Assembly (NCBI RefSeq): GCF_988243305.1
Contig: NZ_OZ547137.1
Reading direction: 5' to 3' (one strand)
DNA: 64,000 bases
Source: a plasmid
A program made the translations under genes and the position numbers. The stretch's first letter is position 1; every line of letters begins with the position of its first letter. Shown here in pieces: positions 2,269 to 58,164 of this stretch. The notes beneath the pieces were generated by a model. It was given only the letters and a program-made list of their open reading frames with translations, did no database searches and was not told the origin of the DNA.

Positions 2269-3303
2269 CTAGTCATCACGGTGATTACGTTCAAATCCCC
2301 TGCGCCCTCTTGCTGCCCATTCAGCATTGAGTATCACATAACGCTCCCAGCGTTCACGCAACTGTGCGAGCTTTATCGGTAATTCTTTGGTGACAAAGGC
2401 TTCAGGTATTTCAAAGTTGTCATCAAGATGCCCTTCCAGGAATGCATGGACGCCTTCCAATACATCAACCAGAGTGATGTTGTTACTTTGTTGCCCTTCA
2501 AGAAGTGGCCCCTGCCAACTATGCCAGAAGGTCTGATGGCGCAGACAACTTTCGTCATTCGCGAGCCGCCATAAATCCATAAAGATTCCTCGAGCAACTT
2601 TGAACGGCTGTTCATCAAACTGTTCGATGAGAAAGAAATAACACGGAATCTTGAGCGCGTTAATTCGCGCAATTTCAATTTCAGCATCACGGCGCAAGGC
2701 AATCAGATTGCTAAAGCGCGATCGCATACAGGCGATAGGGTTCAACACCCTTACCTTTTCATTCATTTCAGGCATACTGGGGCCGGTTGCTTCTACATAA
2801 AACGGGGCTGTATGCAGGTAAAGCTTTTCCCCCAGAAAATCAGAACGGTCGAAGCCTCCGGGCCGATCGATAATATCCACCACATTTGGCTCGTCAGGCG
2901 CATCCGGTACGGCAAATAAACGTCCATCATCCCGTTTGATATCGTGTGTGTCCTGATCGATAAGCATAAACTGCGCAAGGGATGGGGGCTGACCGTCTTT
3001 GTTTTCCCACGTTTTCACGTTGAGCGTTTTTGCTATAGCCGCAATATCATCTTTCCGGGCACTGTAGTCGCAGTCAACAGAAGTGGTGAGACGCTCATCA
3101 GGCAATCTGTCGCCGTATTGTGCATGATAATAGGATATCCAATATTGCACAGCCTGGCCGCCAACTGTGATAACGGCATGTTTGAGCTGGTCAGCGTTGC
3201 AGATCAACTGCTGATTTAGCAGATACATCTGCTCATAGGGGGGAATAACGTCTTGAACTGGCATAAAAAAACCATCAGCGAATGATGGTTTATTGTGCCT
3301 CAA
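2269..3303 (-). CDS. hypothetical protein (344 aa), function unknown
   Basis: Long uninterrupted ORF; no family recognised with certainty. A VGGQAV...TSVDCDY stretch is loosely reminiscent of nucleotidyltransferase-fold motifs. Confidence 0.5.
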   Translation of the reverse strand: MRHNKPSFADGFFMPVQDVIPPYEQMYLLNQQLICNADQLKHAVITVGGQAVQYWISYYHAQYGDRLPDERLTTSVDCDYSARKDDIAAIAKTLNVKTWENKDGQPPSLAQFMLIDQDTHDIKRDDGRLFAVPDAPDEPNVVDIIDRPGGFDRSDFLGEKLYLHTAPFYVEATGPSMPEMNEKVRVLNPIACMRSRFSNLIALRRDAEIEIARINALKIPCYFFLIEQFDEQPFKVARGIFMDLWRLANDESCLRHQTFWHSWQGPLLEGQQSNNITLVDVLEGVHAFLEGHLDDNFEIPEAFVTKELPIKLAQLRERWERYVILNAEWAARGRRGFERNHRDD

Positions 3304-3917: not shown

Positions 3918-4603
<686 letters not shown>

Positions 4604-4702
4604 GCCAATATTCACACAATTAACTAATATTTTCTACGCAATACGTGACACCTTTCGAGGAGAGGTGCTCGAAATTTCAGACATAAAAAGCCCCGTAGGG
4701 CC

Positions 4703-5104
4703 TTAGATGATTTCTTCCAATGCTGATTCCAGTTCTTTTACTTGCATTGCTCTAAGACGAGGAGCTAATGTTCGATGGGCGTTTAAGTAATCAATGGCTC
4801 TTGTTACCAGCTTTCCTCCGCCACAGACAACGAAATAACTCTGATGTTGTGTGTGTTGTGCATCAAGAACTGTGTGGCCTAGCTTCTCTATTGCGGTACC
4901 ACTCACTTCCTGCCATTTAGCCGTTATTTGAACGGTACCGGTATTAGTGAACAACAGGAAGTGGGCTATTTCATTCTTTCCCGCGATCAGACCAGGATAA
5001 CTGACATTTTTTTTAAACGTCATCGGAGCTTCTGAGTTACTTAGCTCAAAGCCTGCCCCAGAAATAATTGCTTCAATATCACGCAGTAATTCTGCTCTGG
5101 ACAT
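4703..5104 (-). CDS. hypothetical protein (133 aa), cargo of the Tn3-like cassette
   Basis: Uninterrupted ORF between tnpR and the intron; no family recognised. Confidence 0.45.
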   Translation of the reverse strand: MSRAELLRDIEAIISGAGFELSNSEAPMTFKKNVSYPGLIAGKNEIAHFLLFTNTGTVQITAKWQEVSGTAIEKLGHTVLDAQHTQHQSYFVVCGGGKLVTRAIDYLNAHRTLAPRLRAMQVKELESALEEII

Positions 5105-5214
5105 ACTTTCACCTTATCGTGTTGTATCTTTTTTGATCTTGGGGGGGAGGCAGAATTTTCAAGATGTAGGCGTTTTATTTTATGGTTAATAATCACCGCC
5201 ACTCTTATGGTGAG

Positions 5215-7082
5215 AGATCGGGATAGGGGCTGATCTCACGATTAGCCTCCTCCCACACCACCGTACATACGGGTCCGTATACGGCAGTTCGGTTATGTTT
5301 ATCGTCGCCTGCCTATAACTCCGGTAGGCCCAGTCTGACGAACAGGCGATTGGGAAGTGCTATGCTCAGTGCCGGACTACAGCTTATCCGCCATTGCTTA
5401 TGGCAACTCCCTACCGTTTGCGCTGCAAGGTCTTTGCTTACTCCCCGTCTGCGCAACTCTTTGAAGCGCTTGCTGCCCGTTTTCCACTGTTTCCACAGGA
5501 CACTTCGCAACCTTCGCCTTATCCACCTGTTCAGATCTCTCATCAGCGTTTGCCACTGGTTCAGTCCATAGTAGCTTTTCCATCCCGTCAGATATCGCTT
5601 TAACGGTTCGATAAGCTGCTCTAGGCTTTTGCCCGTGTTACGCCCCGTCAGTTCTCTTATCCGGGTTTTGAACCGCTTCACCGATTCCGGCAACACCACA
5701 CACCACACCTTTCTGCCCCTCCTGAAGCTGTAACCCAGGAACTTACGCGTCTCCGGAAGCGCTACCGCGCTCTTCTTCGCGTTGAGCTTCAGCTTCAGTT
5801 TCCGGTTCAGCCAGTGCGTCAGCCCCGCCATCATACGGTTGCCTGCCCGTTCACTCTTCACATACACATTACAGTCGTCTGCGTAGCGGGCGAACTTCAG
5901 GCCGCGTTTCTCAAGTTCCTTATCGAAGTCATCCAGCAGCAGATTCGATAACAGTGGCGACAGTGGGCCGCCCTGCGGCGTCCCTTCTGTCACCGGCATT
6001 ACCAGACCCGCTTCCATCACACCTGCATTCAGGTACCCGCGGATAAGTGACAGCACCCGTTTATCCGATACTCGTTTCGCTATCCGGCTCATCAGTACAT
6101 CGTGATTCACCCGATCGAAGAACTTTTCCAGATCGAGGTCAACCCCCCAGCTGTAGCCCGACTCGATGTATTTCTGAGCCTGCTTCACTGCCTGATGCGC
6201 CGAGCGTCCGGGCCGGAACCCGTAGCTGCTGTCGCTGAACGTCGCATCCCACTGTGCCTGCAACACCTGCATCATCGCCTGCTGGATAAAGCGATCCACC
6301 ACCGTCGGGATGCCCAACAGACGTTCGCCGCCGCCGGGCTTCGGGATAGTCACTCTTCTTACAGGGGATGGGCGGTAGCTGCCGGACAGCAGTTGCGCTT
6401 TCAGTTCCGGCCAGTGGTGTCTCAGATAGTCCGGCAGTTCGCTTACGCTCATGCCGTCGGCTCCCGCCGCACCTTTATTGGCCTTCACTCTTTTCAGGGC
6501 ATGCCTGAGGTTGACTGGTTCGCAGATGGCTTCCATCAGCCACGCTGTTGACGATGGACTTTCTCTGGTCGTCGGTGCCTGCACGGTTTCAGCCCCCTGA
6601 GAACCGGCGTCAGGGGCTTCACCCCGTCTTCCTGCATCAGGGTCGCGATACGTTTTCTGCTGCATGACCGTTCAGAACCTCCGCTGATACTCGTCACTCA
6701 TTACCGTTCGGGCCTTCAGACGCGCCTGTCCTACTATGCCCTCTGCTGACTCCTGTCCGCCGGTCAGCGCACCTTACGGTACGCTCAGTTCTGAATACAG
6801 AACGCCAGACAGGCCTCCCGGGGTAAGCTCAGCCGCTTTCACCACACACCTGCCCAATCTACCACCCCGGCTCTTGATGGTTATGGCCTTTGCAATCAAT
6901 GGCTTGCTCCGCCAGCCGGGTAGGCCTCATATCGGATTTCTGTTCGTCAGGTCATGGTTTTGCTCCACGCTTCCTTCAGATCCCGCCTCACGACGGCACC
7001 CTTGCGCTTCACGAGTCCTTCGCCACCATCAGGCTGGACAGGGGACTTTCACCCCCGAGCTGCTGAGCATGCCCGGCACACC
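5215..7082 (-). mobile_element. group II intron (bacterial class C-like; boundaries approximate)
   Basis: 5-prime end GTGTGCCGGGCATG... on the minus strand sits right after a terminator hairpin; domain V-like stem-loop (rc of 5255..5292) and domain VI downstream of the IEP ORF. Confidence 0.75.
5313..6665 (-). CDS. group II intron-encoded reverse transcriptase/maturase (no endonuclease domain evident)
   Basis: 450 aa with RT motifs (GIPTVVDRFIQQA, FARYADDCNVYV with YADD) and a C-terminal maturase X domain. Confidence 0.9.
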   Translation of the reverse strand: MQQKTYRDPDAGRRGEAPDAGSQGAETVQAPTTRESPSSTAWLMEAICEPVNLRHALKRVKANKGAAGADGMSVSELPDYLRHHWPELKAQLLSGSYRPSPVRRVTIPKPGGGERLLGIPTVVDRFIQQAMMQVLQAQWDATFSDSSYGFRPGRSAHQAVKQAQKYIESGYSWGVDLDLEKFFDRVNHDVLMSRIAKRVSDKRVLSLIRGYLNAGVMEAGLVMPVTEGTPQGGPLSPLLSNLLLDDFDKELEKRGLKFARYADDCNVYVKSERAGNRMMAGLTHWLNRKLKLKLNAKKSAVALPETRKFLGYSFRRGRKVWCVVLPESVKRFKTRIRELTGRNTGKSLEQLIEPLKRYLTGWKSYYGLNQWQTLMRDLNRWIRRRLRSVLWKQWKTGSKRFKELRRRGVSKDLAAQTVGSCHKQWRISCSPALSIALPNRLFVRLGLPEL

Positions 7083-42452: not shown

Positions 42453-43262
42453 TTATGCGTGTCTGTTTTTCAGCATTGTGACCGCATCGGACTCAGGCAT
42501 CGAAAACTGCACCCGGTGCCGTGCAGCCACATCCAGCGCAAACACCTTCGTGTAGACCTCCGTTGAGCTGATGGACTTATGCCCCATTAGGCTCTGCAGG
42601 ACCTTCAGTGGTATACCGGCATACAGCATGTGCATCGCATAGGAATGGCGGAACGTATGTGGCGTGACCGGGACAGAGAACGTCACACCGTCAGTAGCAG
42701 CGGCGGCAACCGCCTCCCCAATCCAGGTCCTGACCGTTCTGTCCGTCACTTCCCAGATCCGCGCTTTCTCTGTCCTGCCTGTTCGTTTATTACGCCGTTC
42801 CAGAGGAACTTTCAGTGTTGCCACCATCGTCTGCAGCTGACTGACGTACCAGGAGTCGGAGAGCGGAACCAGCCGGTGAGTCTGCTGTCCGGCAGGCGTT
42901 CTTCCTGCCGTCCTGGCGGCTTTTTCGGTCCGCTGCTTCAGAGTGGCCAGCTGCACAAACGGATACGGAGGCGCGAGCGAAAAATCCCCCCGCGTCAGCG
43001 CCAGTGCTTCATTAATGCGCGCACCGGTGTTCCACAGTGTAGCCAGCAGCATCTTGCGGCGCAGATCCGGGACGTAATGGAGCAGGGCACTCACTTCCGG
43101 AGCCAGCAGATATTTCGGCAGTTCATCATGAACCATCGACATCTGGCGAAGTGCCAGAGCTGCCGGATAATCAATGACAACAGGAAGTTGTGGAGACTGT
43201 CCGGCAGAATAAACTGCCGGTACCCTGGCTGCAGACTGGCTGTGTATAACGGAGCCTGACAT
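42453..43262 (-). CDS. resD: tyrosine site-specific recombinase (ResD-like multimer resolvase)
   Basis: C-terminal catalytic motifs (HTFRHSYAMHMLYAG...STEVYTKV); immediately downstream of ccdB as in F-like plasmids. Confidence 0.85.
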   Translation of the reverse strand: MSGSVIHSQSAARVPAVYSAGQSPQLPVVIDYPAALALRQMSMVHDELPKYLLAPEVSALLHYVPDLRRKMLLATLWNTGARINEALALTRGDFSLAPPYPFVQLATLKQRTEKAARTAGRTPAGQQTHRLVPLSDSWYVSQLQTMVATLKVPLERRNKRTGRTEKARIWEVTDRTVRTWIGEAVAAAATDGVTFSVPVTPHTFRHSYAMHMLYAGIPLKVLQSLMGHKSISSTEVYTKVFALDVAARHRVQFSMPESDAVTMLKNRHA

Positions 43263-43788
<526 letters not shown>

Positions 43789-44453
43789 AGCACACCTCTT
43801 TTTGACATACTTCTGGTATGCATATCAGTATATATTCTTATGCCGCAAAAATCAGCGCGTTAATACACATACTGTTATCTGGCTTTTAGTAAGCCTTATT
43901 TATTTTTCCTTGAATTATGTTAACCAATAAAAATTAAAATCAGACTTATAAAAACAAAGCTTAATTATCGAAGGACCATTTCCGGCAGATCCGATTTTTC
44001 TGTTATTGACGGGTTTCCGGAAGTGTACCACACTGAGGAAATCATCATATCGCTGTTTTCCGCCCCTGCGCGACGCATCACAGGTCAGGGAGATGACACA
44101 ATATATAGTGTCATCAGCAGCTGAATCCGGCACCACATGTTGTGCTTACAGGAGATGGCGTTGTGTGGGGGGAGAGGAAGATCCTGAACTTACTTTTTTC
44201 GGATCTCTGGAAAAGAAAGGAGTGAGGGATAAAAACTGACATTATTAAAAATATAAAAGCAATGCTTAAAAAGCATAAAAGCAATTTTTGTAATTACTAC
44301 TAGTACTACAAGAAGAATCTATAGTTTGAGGCGGCGTTCATGGCGGTGATCGAGCCGGACACGATTCCGGCATTAGCTGAGCTACTCACACTGAACGGGG
44401 ATCTCTTACGCGTAGACCGGCTGCCGTTCTTCTCAGAGAAGCGGTAGCCGTGG

Positions 44454-53553: not shown

Positions 53554-54531
53554 GTGGATAAGTCGTCCGGTGAGCTGGTGACACTGACACCAAACAATAA
53601 CAACACCGTACAACCTGTGGCGCTGATGCGTCTGGGCGTCTTTGTACCGACCCTTAAATCACTGAAGAACAGTAAAAAAAATACACTGTCACGTACTGAT
53701 GCCACGGAAGAGCTGACACGTCTTTCCCTGGCCCGTGCAGAGGGATTCGATAAAGTTGAGATCACCGGCCCCCGCCTGGATATGGATAACGATTTCAAGA
53801 CCTGGGTGGGGATCATTCATTCCTTTGCCCGCCATAACGTAATTGGTGACAAAGTTGAACTGCCTTTTGTCGAGTTTGCAAAACTGTGTGGTATACCTTC
53901 AAGCCAGTCATCCCGCAGGCTGCGTGAGCGCATCAGCCCTTCCCTGAAGCGCATTGCCGGTACCGTGATTTCGTTTTCCCGTACCGATGAGAAGCACACC
54001 CGGGAATATATCACCCATCTGGTACAGTCAGCCTACTACGATACTGAGCGGGATATTGTGCAGTTACAGGCCGATCCCCGCCTGTTTGAACTGTACCAGT
54101 TTGACAGAAAAGTCCTTCTCCAGCTTAAGGCGATTAATGCCCTGAAGCGACGGGAGTCCGCCCAGGCACTCTACACCTTTATAGAGAGCCTGCCCCGGGA
54201 TCCGGCACCGGTATCGCTGGCGCGGCTGCGTGCACGCCTCAATCTGAAGTCTCCTGTATTTTCCCAGAACCAGACGGTCAGACGGGCAATGGAGCAGTTG
54301 CGCGAGATTGGATACCTTGATTACACGGAGATCCAGCGGGGGCGGACAAAATTCTTCTGTATTCACTACCGGCGTCCCCGGTTAAAAGCGCCGAATGATG
54401 AGAGTAAGGAAAATCCGTTGCCACCTTCACCTGCGGAAAAAGTCAGTCCGGAGATGGCGGAGAAACTTGCCCTGCTTGAAAAACTGGGCATCACACTGGA
54501 TGACCTGGAAAAACTCTTCAAATCCCGCTGA
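53554..54531 (+). CDS. repA: RepFIB replication initiator RepA
   Basis: 325 aa [65 protein letters not shown]...; iteron arrays on both sides. Confidence 0.9.
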
Positions 54532-54539
54532 ACATAAAC

Positions 54540-54800
54540 TGTAGTCAGTGAAGAGTGCTCCTTTACTGACTACAGCTTATATTATCAGGTGCAGTGAGTG
54601 GTCCGCTCACTGCAGTTTATATTCAGTTTCCTGCAGTGCTGCCTGTGGCTGAGCTGCCATCTGCCTGTCCCTTACGTGAGTCACCCCGTAACCTGATGCT
54701 GAGGCATTGCTCCCTTCATAAAACATGGTTTACTCACTACAGCTTATCTACCTGCTCCAGCTTATGTTATGTCTGTTCTGCTGACCACTGCTTATATAAG
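54540..54800. promoter_or_regulatory. RepFIB downstream iterons
   Basis: Repeated ctacagcttatat / actgcagtttatat / ccactgcttatataag units. Confidence 0.7.
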
Positions 54801-54809
54801 GAAGTGCCG

Positions 54810-55550
54810 TTACTTCAGGGGAGGCAGTGTACGCAGGATCTCCGCAGCATCCCGACCGTCACCTGTGAAAGGCACTGCCAGCGTGGCAGCCATATCCAGT
54901 GCAAACACTCTGGTATAAACCTCCATCGAACGTGGATCCCTGTGACCAGCCAGTGCCTGGATGACTTTCCGGGGCTGGCGGTGATAGAGCATGTGCATGA
55001 TATAGCTGTGCCGGAAGGTATGCGGCGTCACCGGAATCGAAAAGTGTACCCCGTCAGCTTCGGCCCGTCTGACAGCCTGCTTCAGCCAGTTGCGCATGGT
55101 TTCGTCGGTCACGGCCCATAATGGTTCACGACGACGGGGCCGGGTAGTGATCATCCAGCTTTCCATCTGCCTGACATAGCTTATATCTGTCAGCGGAACC
55201 AGGCGCACTTCATCTTTTGGCGGGCGTCCGCGTCGCGCACGCACTTTTTCGGACAGGATCCGCACAAACGGTCTTGCACCATCCAGGTCAAATGATTCCG
55301 GCGTCAGCATCCGGGCTTCGCCAATACGCATTCCGGTATTCCAGAGGGTGGCGAACAGCATATGGTGACGCTGATCCGGCATATAGAAAAGAAGGGCACT
55401 CACTTCCGGGGCCAGCAGATAGGCCGGTGTGGCCCCCGTGGAAGTGGCCATTCTTCTCAGGGAGAGCGCTGTTGCAAAATCCACCCCCGGCGCAATGGGT
55501 AACAGGGAAACGCGTTCTGGTGAATTCTGCAGGGGAATGACATTGTTCAT
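54810..55550 (-). CDS. int: tyrosine site-specific recombinase (F-plasmid Int/ResD-like)
   Basis: [39 protein letters not shown]... with catalytic [13 protein letters not shown]...MEVYTRV. Confidence 0.85.
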
Positions 55551-55913
55551 GAGTTATTTTTCACGTAGCACACGCACTGTTTATGGATACAGGTATTCTG
55601 ACCTGAACGCCCGGATCCTTCCACGACAATAAATCGCAGCACGCGGATCCTTTTGTTTGCTTATCACGCATTATTGCGGGTAAAACCAAATACGTAAAGG
55701 CGCGTTTTGCAGCAGGGATCCCGTCTTAAGCCAGTCGTGGCGCGGGCTGATGGCTGGTTTGCCGTCTTTGGGAGAAATGGGGTAATGCCAGGACAAACAG
55801 GATCGGACCAAAAGGAAAAGGAGCAGGGAAGAAGGAGGATGCGCTACGTGAATTCTGACCTGGTACACCCCTGTAACCCTGCCAGTTTTCACGTAGCGCA
55901 ATGTGGTTGCTAC

Positions 55914-56210
55914 CTAACACCAGTTGAGATGAGAGCCGGCATCCTGATGCTGGATTAATATACGGATAATAATAATTTCAGTATCAGTCTGCAGAAAATA
56001 AAGCATATGTCGTTCAACGGATAGTGCGAATATGTATTCCCCCAGTTCAGGGCGGGGAGTACCGATATTATGATCACTCATAACCTGAAAAATATCGGAT
56101 ATCTGATTAATATATTTGTCTGCTTGATCCTCACCAAAATGGCGGCACCCGTAATACCAGATATCCTCCAGATCCTGACTGGCTTTCGGTGTGAGTTTAA
56201 CGGTTTTCAC
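55914..56210 (-). CDS. parE: ParE/RelE-family toxin
   Basis: 98 aa, DLEDIWYYGCRHFGEDQADKY...; overlaps the upstream antitoxin gene. Confidence 0.8.
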   Translation of the reverse strand: MKTVKLTPKASQDLEDIWYYGCRHFGEDQADKYINQISDIFQVMSDHNIGTPRPELGEYIFALSVERHMLYFLQTDTEIIIIRILIQHQDAGSHLNWC

Positions 56211-56463
56211 CGGCCCCCCTCGTGCCAGCTTTAACTTTCTTCAGGAACGCATCTTTTTCCCACACCACAGGTTCACCGCTGCTCAGGCCTTCTGCCAGTA
56301 AATCCCGCAGGGCCTGGAGACGTGACTCTGCCTGTTTCTCGCGCAGGAGACGAAGTGACTCGCGGATTACTTCACTCTGTGTACGGTAATCACCTGATTC
56401 TATGAGAGATTCTATGTACTCCCAGAGTTCATCTCCGAGAGCAACTGTCATTGTTCTGGCCAT
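56197..56463 (-). CDS. parD: ParD-like antitoxin
   Basis: 88 aa, N-terminal RHH-like MARTMTVALGDELWEYIESLIESGDYRTQSEVIRESLRLLRE. Confidence 0.8.
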   Translation of the reverse strand: MARTMTVALGDELWEYIESLIESGDYRTQSEVIRESLRLLREKQAESRLQALRDLLAEGLSSGEPVVWEKDAFLKKVKAGTRGAGENR

Positions 56464-56994
56464 ATCAAGCCTCGTGATTGTAAGTTTAAATTTTACATGC
56501 AGTTTATTCGATACTCAAAGGTGCTTCCAGTACAGAACATTTGGGAGAATTGGGGTAATGCCTGGAACAGACAGATACGGAGAAAAACCCTGCAGATAAC
56601 CTTATACGACAACTGAAGGTGTCTGATGCCATATTCTTAGCTACTTCTCTGTCTTCAGGCGGCTTAGTCACAACATAAGACCGATGCATAATAAGCATAT
56701 TTTTTCATGTTATGGTCTTGTTCATGCATGAACTATTATCTATTCAGTCACTTTTAAAGTTTTATATCATACTGCATATGATATATATCATCTCCTATAT
56801 TCAGACTAAAAATATTATGACGATGGTCAAATGAATTTAGTGAAAACGCTACCTAAAACAATATGCTTATGATATAACTTATCAAGAATATGCGACAATC
56901 TTCTTGAAAGGTTACGGAGAAGAGTCAGATAATGAAGTGTTATAACTCATTCAGCTTTTTTATGTTCTCTTTATAGTAAAACTAGGAGATTAAG

Positions 56995-58164
56995 ATGAAT
57001 CAGAAGTGGAAGACGTTAATTATTTCATTATTAACACCATCAAGTATTATATCAGGGATTGCGTTGATAGTTCTCTGGGGATATTTCAGTCGCCTGGGCC
57101 GACTAGATATTTTCTTTGATGTAATGAATATTAAAAGCATCTTGGTATTGGTTTGTTGTGCAACTATACTATCATTGGCTATGATAGTATTTATCTTTTT
57201 TATAACCTCTTTTTTTATACCCGTAGTTATTCCTCAGGATATAAATAATCTTCCTGCTTACAATAAGATTCAGGGTAATTTTTTATCTGTGATGATGTTA
57301 TCTGGCATGTTCCCCATGGCCTTTATATATGTGTTATACTGTGCATTTGATTTTGATCAGAATGTTAAAGATAACTCTGGCTGGTTATCTATTGCAAGTA
57401 TGGGTGTACTGATAGCTGTTATTTTAGCCATAGTAAATAAGAGGTATCTTGAATATGACTTATCGTTTAAAAACAATAGAATGAAACTGTTGAGACGTGT
57501 TCAGATCTATCTTGTCATTCCGTTGTCTATTGCTTTACTGGTGCATCTTCAGTTAATTCCTCTGGAGATAGTTTTTAGGAATATTGCAACTTCAGATAAG
57601 AGTGTTAATTTCAAAGTGATAGCCGAACTGGCTTTCATGTCATATTTTATCTTTCTTCTGACAATGCTTCCTGGAGTCATTTATCTGAAAATGAATCCAC
57701 AGCATAAATTTTCAAAAAGAATTAGCTATTCATTTATCGCATCCTTGATGTTATTATTAATAATATCGACTCAAATAACCGTGTTACCAGTGATTTTTAC
57801 CCATTCCGTTATTAAGCTATCAGGTATAAGTGACTTCAAAATACATAGCTACATTATTAAATCAAGTGAATATCCTGAAGAGTTTTTTTCCAATGCAGCA
57901 TGGGATAAAAAAAATATAAAACCGGGGGATTATTACTCTGTGCAGGCTGTTTCTATGTTTACGACAAACCAGTTTATTCTCCTTTGTCCTAAGGATATTA
58001 TAAAGTTTTATCGGGAAAGCTGGAAGTTCGAGTTGCTTAATGTAGACTTCGATATAAATACCAGGAAGAAACTCCAGGAAGAAGCTGCATATTGCGTACC
58101 AATTTCTGCAATATCTGTAAAACGATGGGATATGCCTCTTCAGGGCTCGAAACCCTCAAGTTAG
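56995..58164 (+). CDS. hypothetical multi-pass membrane protein (389 aa), AT-rich
   Basis: Multiple hydrophobic segments; good RBS (aggag) upstream of the ATG; no family recognised. Confidence 0.55.
   Translation: MNQKWKTLIISLLTPSSIISGIALIVLWGYFSRLGRLDIFFDVMNIKSILVLVCCATILSLAMIVFIFFITSFFIPVVIPQDINNLPAYNKIQGNFLSVMMLSGMFPMAFIYVLYCAFDFDQNVKDNSGWLSIASMGVLIAVILAIVNKRYLEYDLSFKNNRMKLLRRVQIYLVIPLSIALLVHLQLIPLEIVFRNIATSDKSVNFKVIAELAFMSYFIFLLTMLPGVIYLKMNPQHKFSKRISYSFIASLMLLLIISTQITVLPVIFTHSVIKLSGISDFKIHSYIIKSSEYPEEFFSNAAWDKKNIKPGDYYSVQAVSMFTTNQFILLCPKDIIKFYRESWKFELLNVDFDINTRKKLQEEAAYCVPISAISVKRWDMPLQGSKPSS

Follow-up and report, generated by a model that had tools for sequence, protein, structure and literature searches.

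A conserved boundary site of the RepFIB-int module occurs on both sides of a parDE pair in an F-type plasmid and is a candidate site for a ResD-like recombinase

In the par locus of plasmid RK2 the parDE toxin-antitoxin (TA) genes lie beside the parCBA resolvase genes and the res site, the recombinase being of the serine type and the operons divergent. TA cassettes are common in large integrons, and the pdif sites found in plasmids are 28-bp dif-like palindromic sequences of alternating orientation that are used by the host Xer recombinases. The pdif modules of Acinetobacter plasmids are small, often encode TA pairs, are bounded by copies of the site and occur in various contexts (PMC5790767 and general knowledge). 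In IncI1 and IncR plasmids homology is reported to end, and gene sets to switch, at rfsF, the site of the rfsF/ResD system (PMC8004404, PMC9412624). Here we describe a 64,000-nt stretch of plasmid contig NZ_OZ547137.1 (RefSeq assembly GCF_988243305.1), called the window below, in which a parD-parE pair lies between two direct repeats beside int, a gene encoding a ResD-like tyrosine recombinase. This part of the window holds the RepFIB replicon of a large IncFIB plasmid of the F type from E. coli. In E. coli, Klebsiella and Salmonella many plasmids with virulence or resistance genes have an IncFIB replicon, and the DNA beside RepFIB-int is known to hold very different cargo from one plasmid to another. 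A preprint described the RepFIB-intM neighborhood as a cargo hot spot, the site not being named (bioRxiv 10.1101/2021.07.20.453171), and our literature search found no paper that defines a site for the RepFIB Int. The repeat provides a concrete candidate for the site of this long-noted hot spot of F-like plasmids.

A repeat search returned direct repeats at 55767-55793 and 56540-56566 that are identical at 25 of 27 nt and are 773 nt apart, start to start. Upon gapped local alignment the repeat grew to the two copies listed in Table 1, with identity in 40 of 49 columns (~82%) and three 1-nt gaps, the longest exact runs common to both copies being 10 and 12 nt. A first-pass annotation of the window had placed direct repeats on either side of a TA pair. 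The repeats are real and the letters it quoted are correct, although its positions were shifted rightward, by 4 nt for the left copy and by 1 nt for the right copy. The left part of each copy is a core of 26 nt, TTTGGGAGAAWTGGGGTAATGCCAGG, within which we read two half repeats spaced by 11 nt (TTGGGAGAA and TTGGGGTAA) and the two copies of which have A/T differences at core positions 11 and 24; the remainder is a tail, of a type designated B in the left copy and A in the right copy. A 23-nt core pattern searched with up to three mismatches had only two sites in the 64-kb window, versus 0.00 expected from 100 shuffles. The core of the left copy begins 217 nt upstream of the int start codon.

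The core is not peculiar to this plasmid. The 23-nt core was found with at most one mismatch in all 13 RepFIB-int loci that were fetched by homology alone, which came from E. coli, Shigella, E. fergusonii, Klebsiella, Enterobacter and Citrobacter and had flank identities down to ~82%. Of the 5,000 PLSDB records that best matched 55250-55800, at least 4,868 aligned through it, and in almost all loci with a measurable distance its start lay 217 nt upstream of the int start codon. Several blocks are conserved upstream of int, and the core is the outermost one. A further 120 loci came from searching metagenomes with the exact core pattern and are usable only for what adjoins the core, and a scan of species-representative genomes gave five loci only.

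Past the end of the core (...GTAATGCCAGG) the sequences split into many classes. Among locus pairs having left flanks at least 90% identical, 1,017 of 1,654 diverged 26-27 nt after the core start, and the right-hand 300 nt formed at least 11 clusters that were mutually unalignable. In evenly spaced samples of the PLSDB matches many alignments ended at the last base of the core. About nine tail classes are unrelated from 0-3 nt past the end of the first core, and plasmids with int sides 98-99% identical have right halves that are only ~65% identical or unrelated. Such near-identical int sides joined to differing right halves require repeated exchange at or very near the right edge of the core. 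Most tails have in common a fuzzy consensus, AGGACAAACAGGATCGGA, and hence the full unit of the site is about 50 nt, with strong conservation in its left half and fast divergence in its right half. The repeat is a boundary site of the RepFIB-int module and is not cassette-specific: its left copy occurs in plasmids that never had parDE, and on this point the cassette reading of the first-pass annotation needs correction.

We then asked PLSDB for relatives of the locus by megablast with 55500-56900, which matched 4,563 plasmids. Many of these, NZ_CP135205 (locus L001) among them, gave a two-piece match spanning 629 bp instead of 1,401 bp. Plasmids of this type align on both sides of the locus and are without the 773-bp unit that holds parDE; one repeat copy with the tail type of the right copy remains, that is, tail A directly follows the single core in these "empty" plasmids. 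The empty form was represented by 806 PLSDB records that matched a 301-nt empty-junction query over at least 80% of its length, and the occupied form by 340 records if at least 80% of the 1.4-kb query had to be matched, or 601 if the same share of the interior was required. Only one context, that with tail A, was found in both states. There all occupied loci carry an open reading frame (ORF) of 389 amino acids (aa) that is 99-100% identical to that of the window, and all empty loci carry an allele of the ORF at 89-91% identity.

The 773-bp unit runs from tail B through a hairpin, parE, parD and their promoter to one core (the second core). It keeps the same limits before six right-hand contexts (Table 1), and in every one of these unrelated DNA starts directly after the second core, which has 0-5 mismatches across loci and is less constrained than the first. 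In about 135 loci we found no gene set other than parDE between two cores. The first-pass annotation had proposed that the TA pair is a cassette that could be gained or lost by recombination between the repeats, an idea that invariance of the site among related plasmids would have undermined. Relatives vary at exactly this site, and with both empty and occupied forms in existence and the unit preceding at least five other downstream sequences, invariance was not what the search found. The exact absence of 773 bp and the occurrence of the unit before other DNAs support the proposal as far as a past gain or loss is concerned; ongoing mobility is the part left unsupported.

Several loci have unusual arrangements. 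In Citrobacter braakii NZ_NAEW01000020 (L011) positions 4400-5430 hold a tandem remnant with the order parE'-parD-promoter-core-tail-hairpin-parE'-parD'. This remnant adjoins a truncated transposase-like ORF and is located on the same 71-kb contig as a RepFIB-int copy, in a separate, non-overlapping locus. In two metagenome contigs (L087, ~2310-3080, and L041, ~520-1230, in oriented coordinates) a second ResD-like recombinase gene follows straight after core, tail and hairpin. The protein is 48-59% identical to Int and its gene occupies the position of parDE; the resident int of L087 is truncated after codon 75. Metagenome contig PPYF01544937 (L044) has a 143-bp deletion, from -206 to -63 relative to the core, that removes the predicted int promoter region, with the core and the occupied parDE unit retained despite the deletion. 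Salmonella IncFIB plasmid NZ_CP119981 (L017) has at 2700-2960 a purine-rich tail, a hairpin and a 3' remnant of parE without int or a core, and thus a tail and hairpin can persist without the recombinase module.

The TA genes themselves gave clear matches. ParE matched PF05016 (E 7e-12, 46 bits versus a cut-off of 23) and ParE chains of solved structures in the PDB (E 4e-11 to 1e-5). ParD matched PF03693 (E 9e-17), PF01402 (E 1e-4) and TIGR02606 (E 2e-22, 79 bits versus a cut-off of 46), and solved ParD chains at E 4e-24. The parD gene is upstream of parE and overlaps it by 14 nt. The locus has two marks of a type II TA system of the ParDE kind, a toxin of the ParE/RelE fold and an overlapping upstream gene for a ribbon-helix-helix antitoxin. 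With both genes intact, the Pfam and NCBIfam thresholds passed and solved structures matched, the ParDE-like module named in the first-pass annotation is upheld. Toxicity, its neutralization by the antitoxin and post-segregational killing are putative properties of the pair. An imperfect palindrome (GTAAGTTTAAATTTTAC) overlaps the -10 hexamer of the predicted parDE promoter and is a candidate ParD operator.

The intact parDE allele of the window is rare; identical alleles were found in NZ_CP139842 and in a metagenome locus (L039). In the occupied allele that is most frequent in E. coli (~91% identical), PGAP reports that parE contains an internal stop and that parD is frameshifted. Pseudogenized parDE is present in NZ_AP041118 (L141, 1718-2263) and in the class of locus L003, where both flanking cores are intact. 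The cassette of the window is ~9% diverged from the common allele between ~55790 and ~56390 and identical to it from ~56398 rightward, a pattern indicating that ordinary homologous exchange works here too.

The int gene is separated from parE by a gap of 363 nt. Int contains the motifs RIGEA, HTFRH, GHRD and EVYT and hence the catalytic Arg...His-x-x-Arg...Tyr signature of tyrosine recombinases. Its similarity to Xer and IntI proteins is generic only and far under the family cut-offs. It is 47% identical over 254 aa to a second recombinase of the window, a paralogue encoded at 42453-43262 after ccdAB, the position that resD has in F. The gene order parD-parE-int mirrors that of ccdA-ccdB-resD. 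A near-perfect palindrome, GAGATGACAC-aatatata-GTGTCATCAG, is located upstream of ccdA at 44090-44117 and is followed by a purine-rich stretch; we consider it a candidate rfsF-type site.

The region upstream of int also contains GGATCC at 55613-55618, 55645-55650 and 55717-55722, conserved across lineages. A GGATC, with the Dam sequence GATC, is found at 55799-55803, 8 nt past the CCAGG (a Dcm site) of the core, and recurs in many tail types. Together these sequences form a possible methylation-sensitive or protein-binding array.

Two candidate readings were set aside. A small minus-strand ORF (55671-55901) that runs over the left repeat had no family match, contains in-frame stops in several lineages and has a variable N-terminus. 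In relatives it is labeled "serine/threonine protein kinase", "transcriptional regulator" or "hypothetical protein", and we treat it as spurious, probably an annotation artefact propagated from one database record to another. We also dropped a link of Int to the "XerC-type recombinase" beside mcr-10 on IncF plasmids (PMC7067168, PMC9603504). The RepFIB int of pOZ172, a plasmid read up to its last 27 kb, has the usual core, tail and hairpin, and no mcr-10 is listed adjacent to it.

The hairpin closely follows the parE stop codon on its 3' side and has, when folded, a perfect stem of 13 bp. It is also present in ~2000 Klebsiella IncFIB(K) plasmids that are without parDE. Its pairing is kept across plasmid lineages: seven of 16 pairs were altered on both sides, versus 1.6 in shuffles, and none of 500 shuffles reached this number of compensatory changes. 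As one and the same Int protein (WP_001515717.1) occurs with two different arm sequences, base pairing is more likely to be the conserved feature of the hairpin than recognition of the arm sequence by Int. A 13-nt motif, TG(C/T)GCTACGTGAA, occurs three times, at 55558-55572, 55840-55852 and 55888-55900, the last two being the hairpin arms. The copy nearest int, TGTGCTACGTGAA, sits where a ribosome-binding site would be expected. In a minus-strand transcript the 3' arm of the hairpin would be complementary to this motif of the int leader, which suggests a possible alternative RNA pairing; a shared protein-binding site is the other possibility. The hairpin may act as a terminator or as an insulator that separates parDE from int, may pair alternatively with the int leader, or may be a DNA structure at a recombination site. 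RNA folding of the repeat copies gave no structure above shuffles (z -1.3 to +0.7), and an Rfam scan of 54400-57100 at E values up to 1 gave two chance matches only; core and hairpin fall in no described RNA family.

Table 1. Positions of the features discussed and the right-hand contexts of the parDE unit
Feature	Position	Strand	Description
ccdA-ccdB-recombinase block, F type	42453-43788	-	ccdA and ccdB both equivalog matches
repB, RepFIB initiator	53554..54531	+	backbone module together with int
int ("intM"), tyrosine recombinase	54810..55550	-	246 aa; PF00589 E 8e-15
Third copy of hairpin-arm motif, TTTTCACGTAGCACA	55558..55572		~10 nt upstream of int start codon
Predicted int promoter	55698-55670	-	TTTACG-17-AATAAT; among the most conserved blocks upstream of int
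Left repeat copy	55767..55815	+	26-nt core TTTGGGAGAAATGGGGTAATGCCAGG (55767-55792), then purine-rich tail type B
773-bp present/absent unit	55793..56565		register within the repeat arbitrary
Imperfect palindrome (hairpin)	55840..55900		61 nt; 13-bp perfect outer arms TGCGCTACGTGAA / TTCACGTAGCGCA
parE, toxin gene	55914..56210	-	98 aa, intact; Pfam PF05016
parD, antitoxin gene	56197..56463	-	88 aa, intact; ribbon-helix-helix N-terminus
Imperfect palindrome GTAAGTTTAAATTTTAC	56480-56496		overlaps -10 hexamer of predicted parDE promoter
Predicted parDE promoter	56518-56490 within 56480..56518	-	sigma-70-like, TTGAGT-17-TAAAAT
Right repeat copy	56540..56589	+	second core TTTGGGAGAATTGGGGTAATGCCTGG, then tail type A
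parDE context 1			tail A and 389-aa ORF; window and eight other loci
parDE context 2			second tail and hairpin, then NACHT-domain gene; L076 type
parDE context 3			another tail and hairpin; L034
parDE contexts 4 and 5			two Klebsiella/Citrobacter-type contexts; L004 and L013 types
parDE context 6			second parDE copy, tandem remnant; Citrobacter braakii

The explanation that we favor, and to which we assign a probability of about 0.5, is that the ResD-like Int uses the core as its crossover or boundary site and that parDE was caught between two copies of it. The two repeats are copies of a ~50-bp site, the 26-nt left half of which forms the fixed outer boundary of the RepFIB-int module in IncFIB plasmids and would serve the adjacent recombinase as its crossover or attachment point. 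Int would normally resolve plasmid multimers at the core and, upon acting between different plasmids, would swap everything on the cargo side and thereby re-assort backbone and cargo, a course of events parallel to that proposed for the rfsF/ResD sites of IncI1 and IncR plasmids (PMC8004404, PMC9412624). Recombination of a site on a parDE-bearing molecule with the backbone site would leave parDE between two direct sites, and recombination between these two, by Int or by short-homology slippage, would release a 773-bp circle and give the empty form. The parD-parE genes, transcribed towards int from what would be their own autoregulated promoter, would constitute an addiction module beside a resolvase, like ccdAB-resD in F, and an active TA pair would select against loss of the unit between the two sites. 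The anatomy of the repeat, its conservation, the pile-up of breakpoints and the natural empty form are observed, and the role of Int at the core is inferred.

A number of points weigh against this explanation. The full linkage of occupancy to a flank allele diverged by ~10% suggests one old gain or loss rather than frequent mobility by ongoing excision and integration. Empties were found for one downstream context only, and synthetic empty-junction queries built for the L076 and L013 contexts retrieved none. The second core is decayed in Klebsiella plasmids (5 of 23 positions mismatched), unlike the first core. A scan for a classical tyrosine-recombinase core (10-bp inverted arms with at least 8 of 10 positions complementary, spacer of 5-9 bp) found none in 55540-55930, although it does return a perfect candidate upstream of ccdA; similarity between the upstream regions of int and resD was not above that of shuffles. 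Two active direct sites should be unstable, and in this respect the locus is unlike the rfsF/ResD systems: two direct copies persist here where an efficient resolvase should have collapsed them. The 120 metagenome loci were chosen by the core pattern and hence are no proof that the core is conserved, and, judging from the tail consensus, the apparent break is in part due to a homologous right half that diverges fast and not to a junction with unrelated DNA. The fixed distance of 217 nt and the breakpoint pile-up are observed; the action of Int at the core is itself putative.

Several of these points also fit a scheme that has no dedicated enzyme, the main rival, which we regard as possible though doubtful. 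It holds that the repeats come from an old duplication, that a single RecA-independent slipped-strand or short-homology event, or a rare RecA deletion, gave the empties, and that the sharp core boundary reflects only selection that keeps the control region of int intact. In E. coli the loss of DNA between short direct repeats less than 1 kb apart is well established. The tie of occupancy to one flank allele is consistent with a single event, and the scheme would also accommodate the lack of empties in the other contexts, the decay of the second core in some lineages, the lack of a classical recombinase site in the interval scanned and the homologous exchange evident from a ~9% diverged cassette with an identical right flank. 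However, exact matches of 10 and 12 nt at the longest are a poor RecA substrate, and slippage explains loss, not the presence of one unit before six right-hand contexts that start at the end of the second core. Nor does the scheme explain how some nine classes of tail come to be unrelated from 0-3 nt past the first core despite near-identical int sides, for random breakpoints under selection should give shared tails of varied length.

That same pile-up of breakpoints at the core edge is unaccounted for if the repeat is a regulatory element, for instance a site for a host or plasmid factor, required upstream of the int and parDE promoters and duplicated for that purpose, with its use as deletion homology incidental. 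Both copies do lie upstream of predicted minus-strand promoters, the half repeats at 11-nt spacing (TTGGGAGAA, TTGGGGTAA) have a layout typical of tandem-binding regulators, and the core is one among several conserved blocks upstream of int. However, the distance to the -35 hexamer is ~68 nt for int versus ~20 nt for parDE, and in Klebsiella the second copy decays while parD stays 84-91% identical; we consider this reading unlikely. Still far less probable is target-site duplication by a parDE-carrying transposable element or a chance similarity. The unit does have direct repeats on either side, but a 49-nt repeat at ~82% identity does not fit a target duplication, the unit contains neither a transposase ORF nor terminal inverted repeats, and plasmids that have no insert still carry the left copy. 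Chance is opposed by the 0.00 matches expected in shuffles and by recurrence of the arrangement across genera, and on these grounds (shuffles, length and identity of the repeat, missing transposase and terminal inverted repeats) we excluded both the transposable element and chance.

If Int does use the core, this would explain how backbones and cargo become re-assorted, would provide a one-nucleotide landmark for plasmid comparison and typing, and would predict that the parDE module is able to loop out. If it does not, there is only an old repeat-bounded TA deletion, which is ordinary. A more far-reaching form of the favored explanation, which we put forward tentatively, is that the core is an attI-like capture site of Int and that exchange at one nucleotide position joined the RepFIB backbone to differing cargo. 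In thousands of F-like plasmids the cargo joined in this way would include ColV virulence genes, P-like fimbriae and hemolysin, and parDE would be the one small unit that is still trapped between two sites. If true, the loose "cargo hot spot" would become a defined site-specific system that has an unusual asymmetric site with no palindromic core and a conserved hairpin.

The likeness to integrons is partial. As at attI, the recombinase gene faces away from a fixed site and variable DNA starts at the far edge of that site, and as in integron cassettes a hairpin-forming element is present 3' of the genes of the parDE unit. Unlike an integron integrase, Int has only 246 aa and scored 51 bits with TIGR02249 (cut-off 265) and 36 with NF011946 (cut-off 435), the matches to these profiles being in the C-terminal catalytic segment only. 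Also unlike integrons, only one type of cassette, with a promoter of its own, was found between the two sites in ~135 loci, and the junction is not within the hairpin, which lies 47 nt away from it and also occurs without any cassette. The pdif modules resemble the parDE unit as small TA modules that are bounded by site copies and found in different plasmid contexts; they differ in that the copies here are direct, have no layout of XerC arm, 6-nt spacer and XerD arm and lie beside a plasmid-encoded recombinase. Compared by eye with the dif and cer consensus sequences, the copies are not dif-like. Overall, the locus showed no integron IntI match at threshold, no promoterless attC array, no classical arm-spacer core in 55540-55930, no target-site duplication and no pdif sites.

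The systems closest to the parDE-int locus pair TA genes with a resolvase. The likeness to rfsF/ResD (F; IncI1, IncR and pSLT-type plasmids) lies in a recombinase 47% identical to that following ccdAB in the window, in a candidate site upstream of the recombinase gene and a TA pair transcribed towards it, and in the reported homology ends and gene-set swaps at rfsF, which resemble the behavior at the core. The core region differs in that it has no sequence similarity to the region upstream of resD and no short palindromic core such as that upstream of ccdA. In ccdAB-resD of F, too, the TA genes precede the recombinase gene, read in the same direction and belong with it to one stability block, but there TA and recombinase genes form one operon without an intervening repeat or hairpin. 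The RK2 par locus, as generally known, also has a type II TA system directly beside a multimer-resolution recombinase. Neither ccdAB-resD nor RK2 par brackets its TA pair with two copies of a site. Dimer resolution by Int and stabilized inheritance are putative functions of the locus. The arrangement of parDE and Int is of a known kind, a resolvase-type site with mosaic junctions and a TA pair beside the resolvase.

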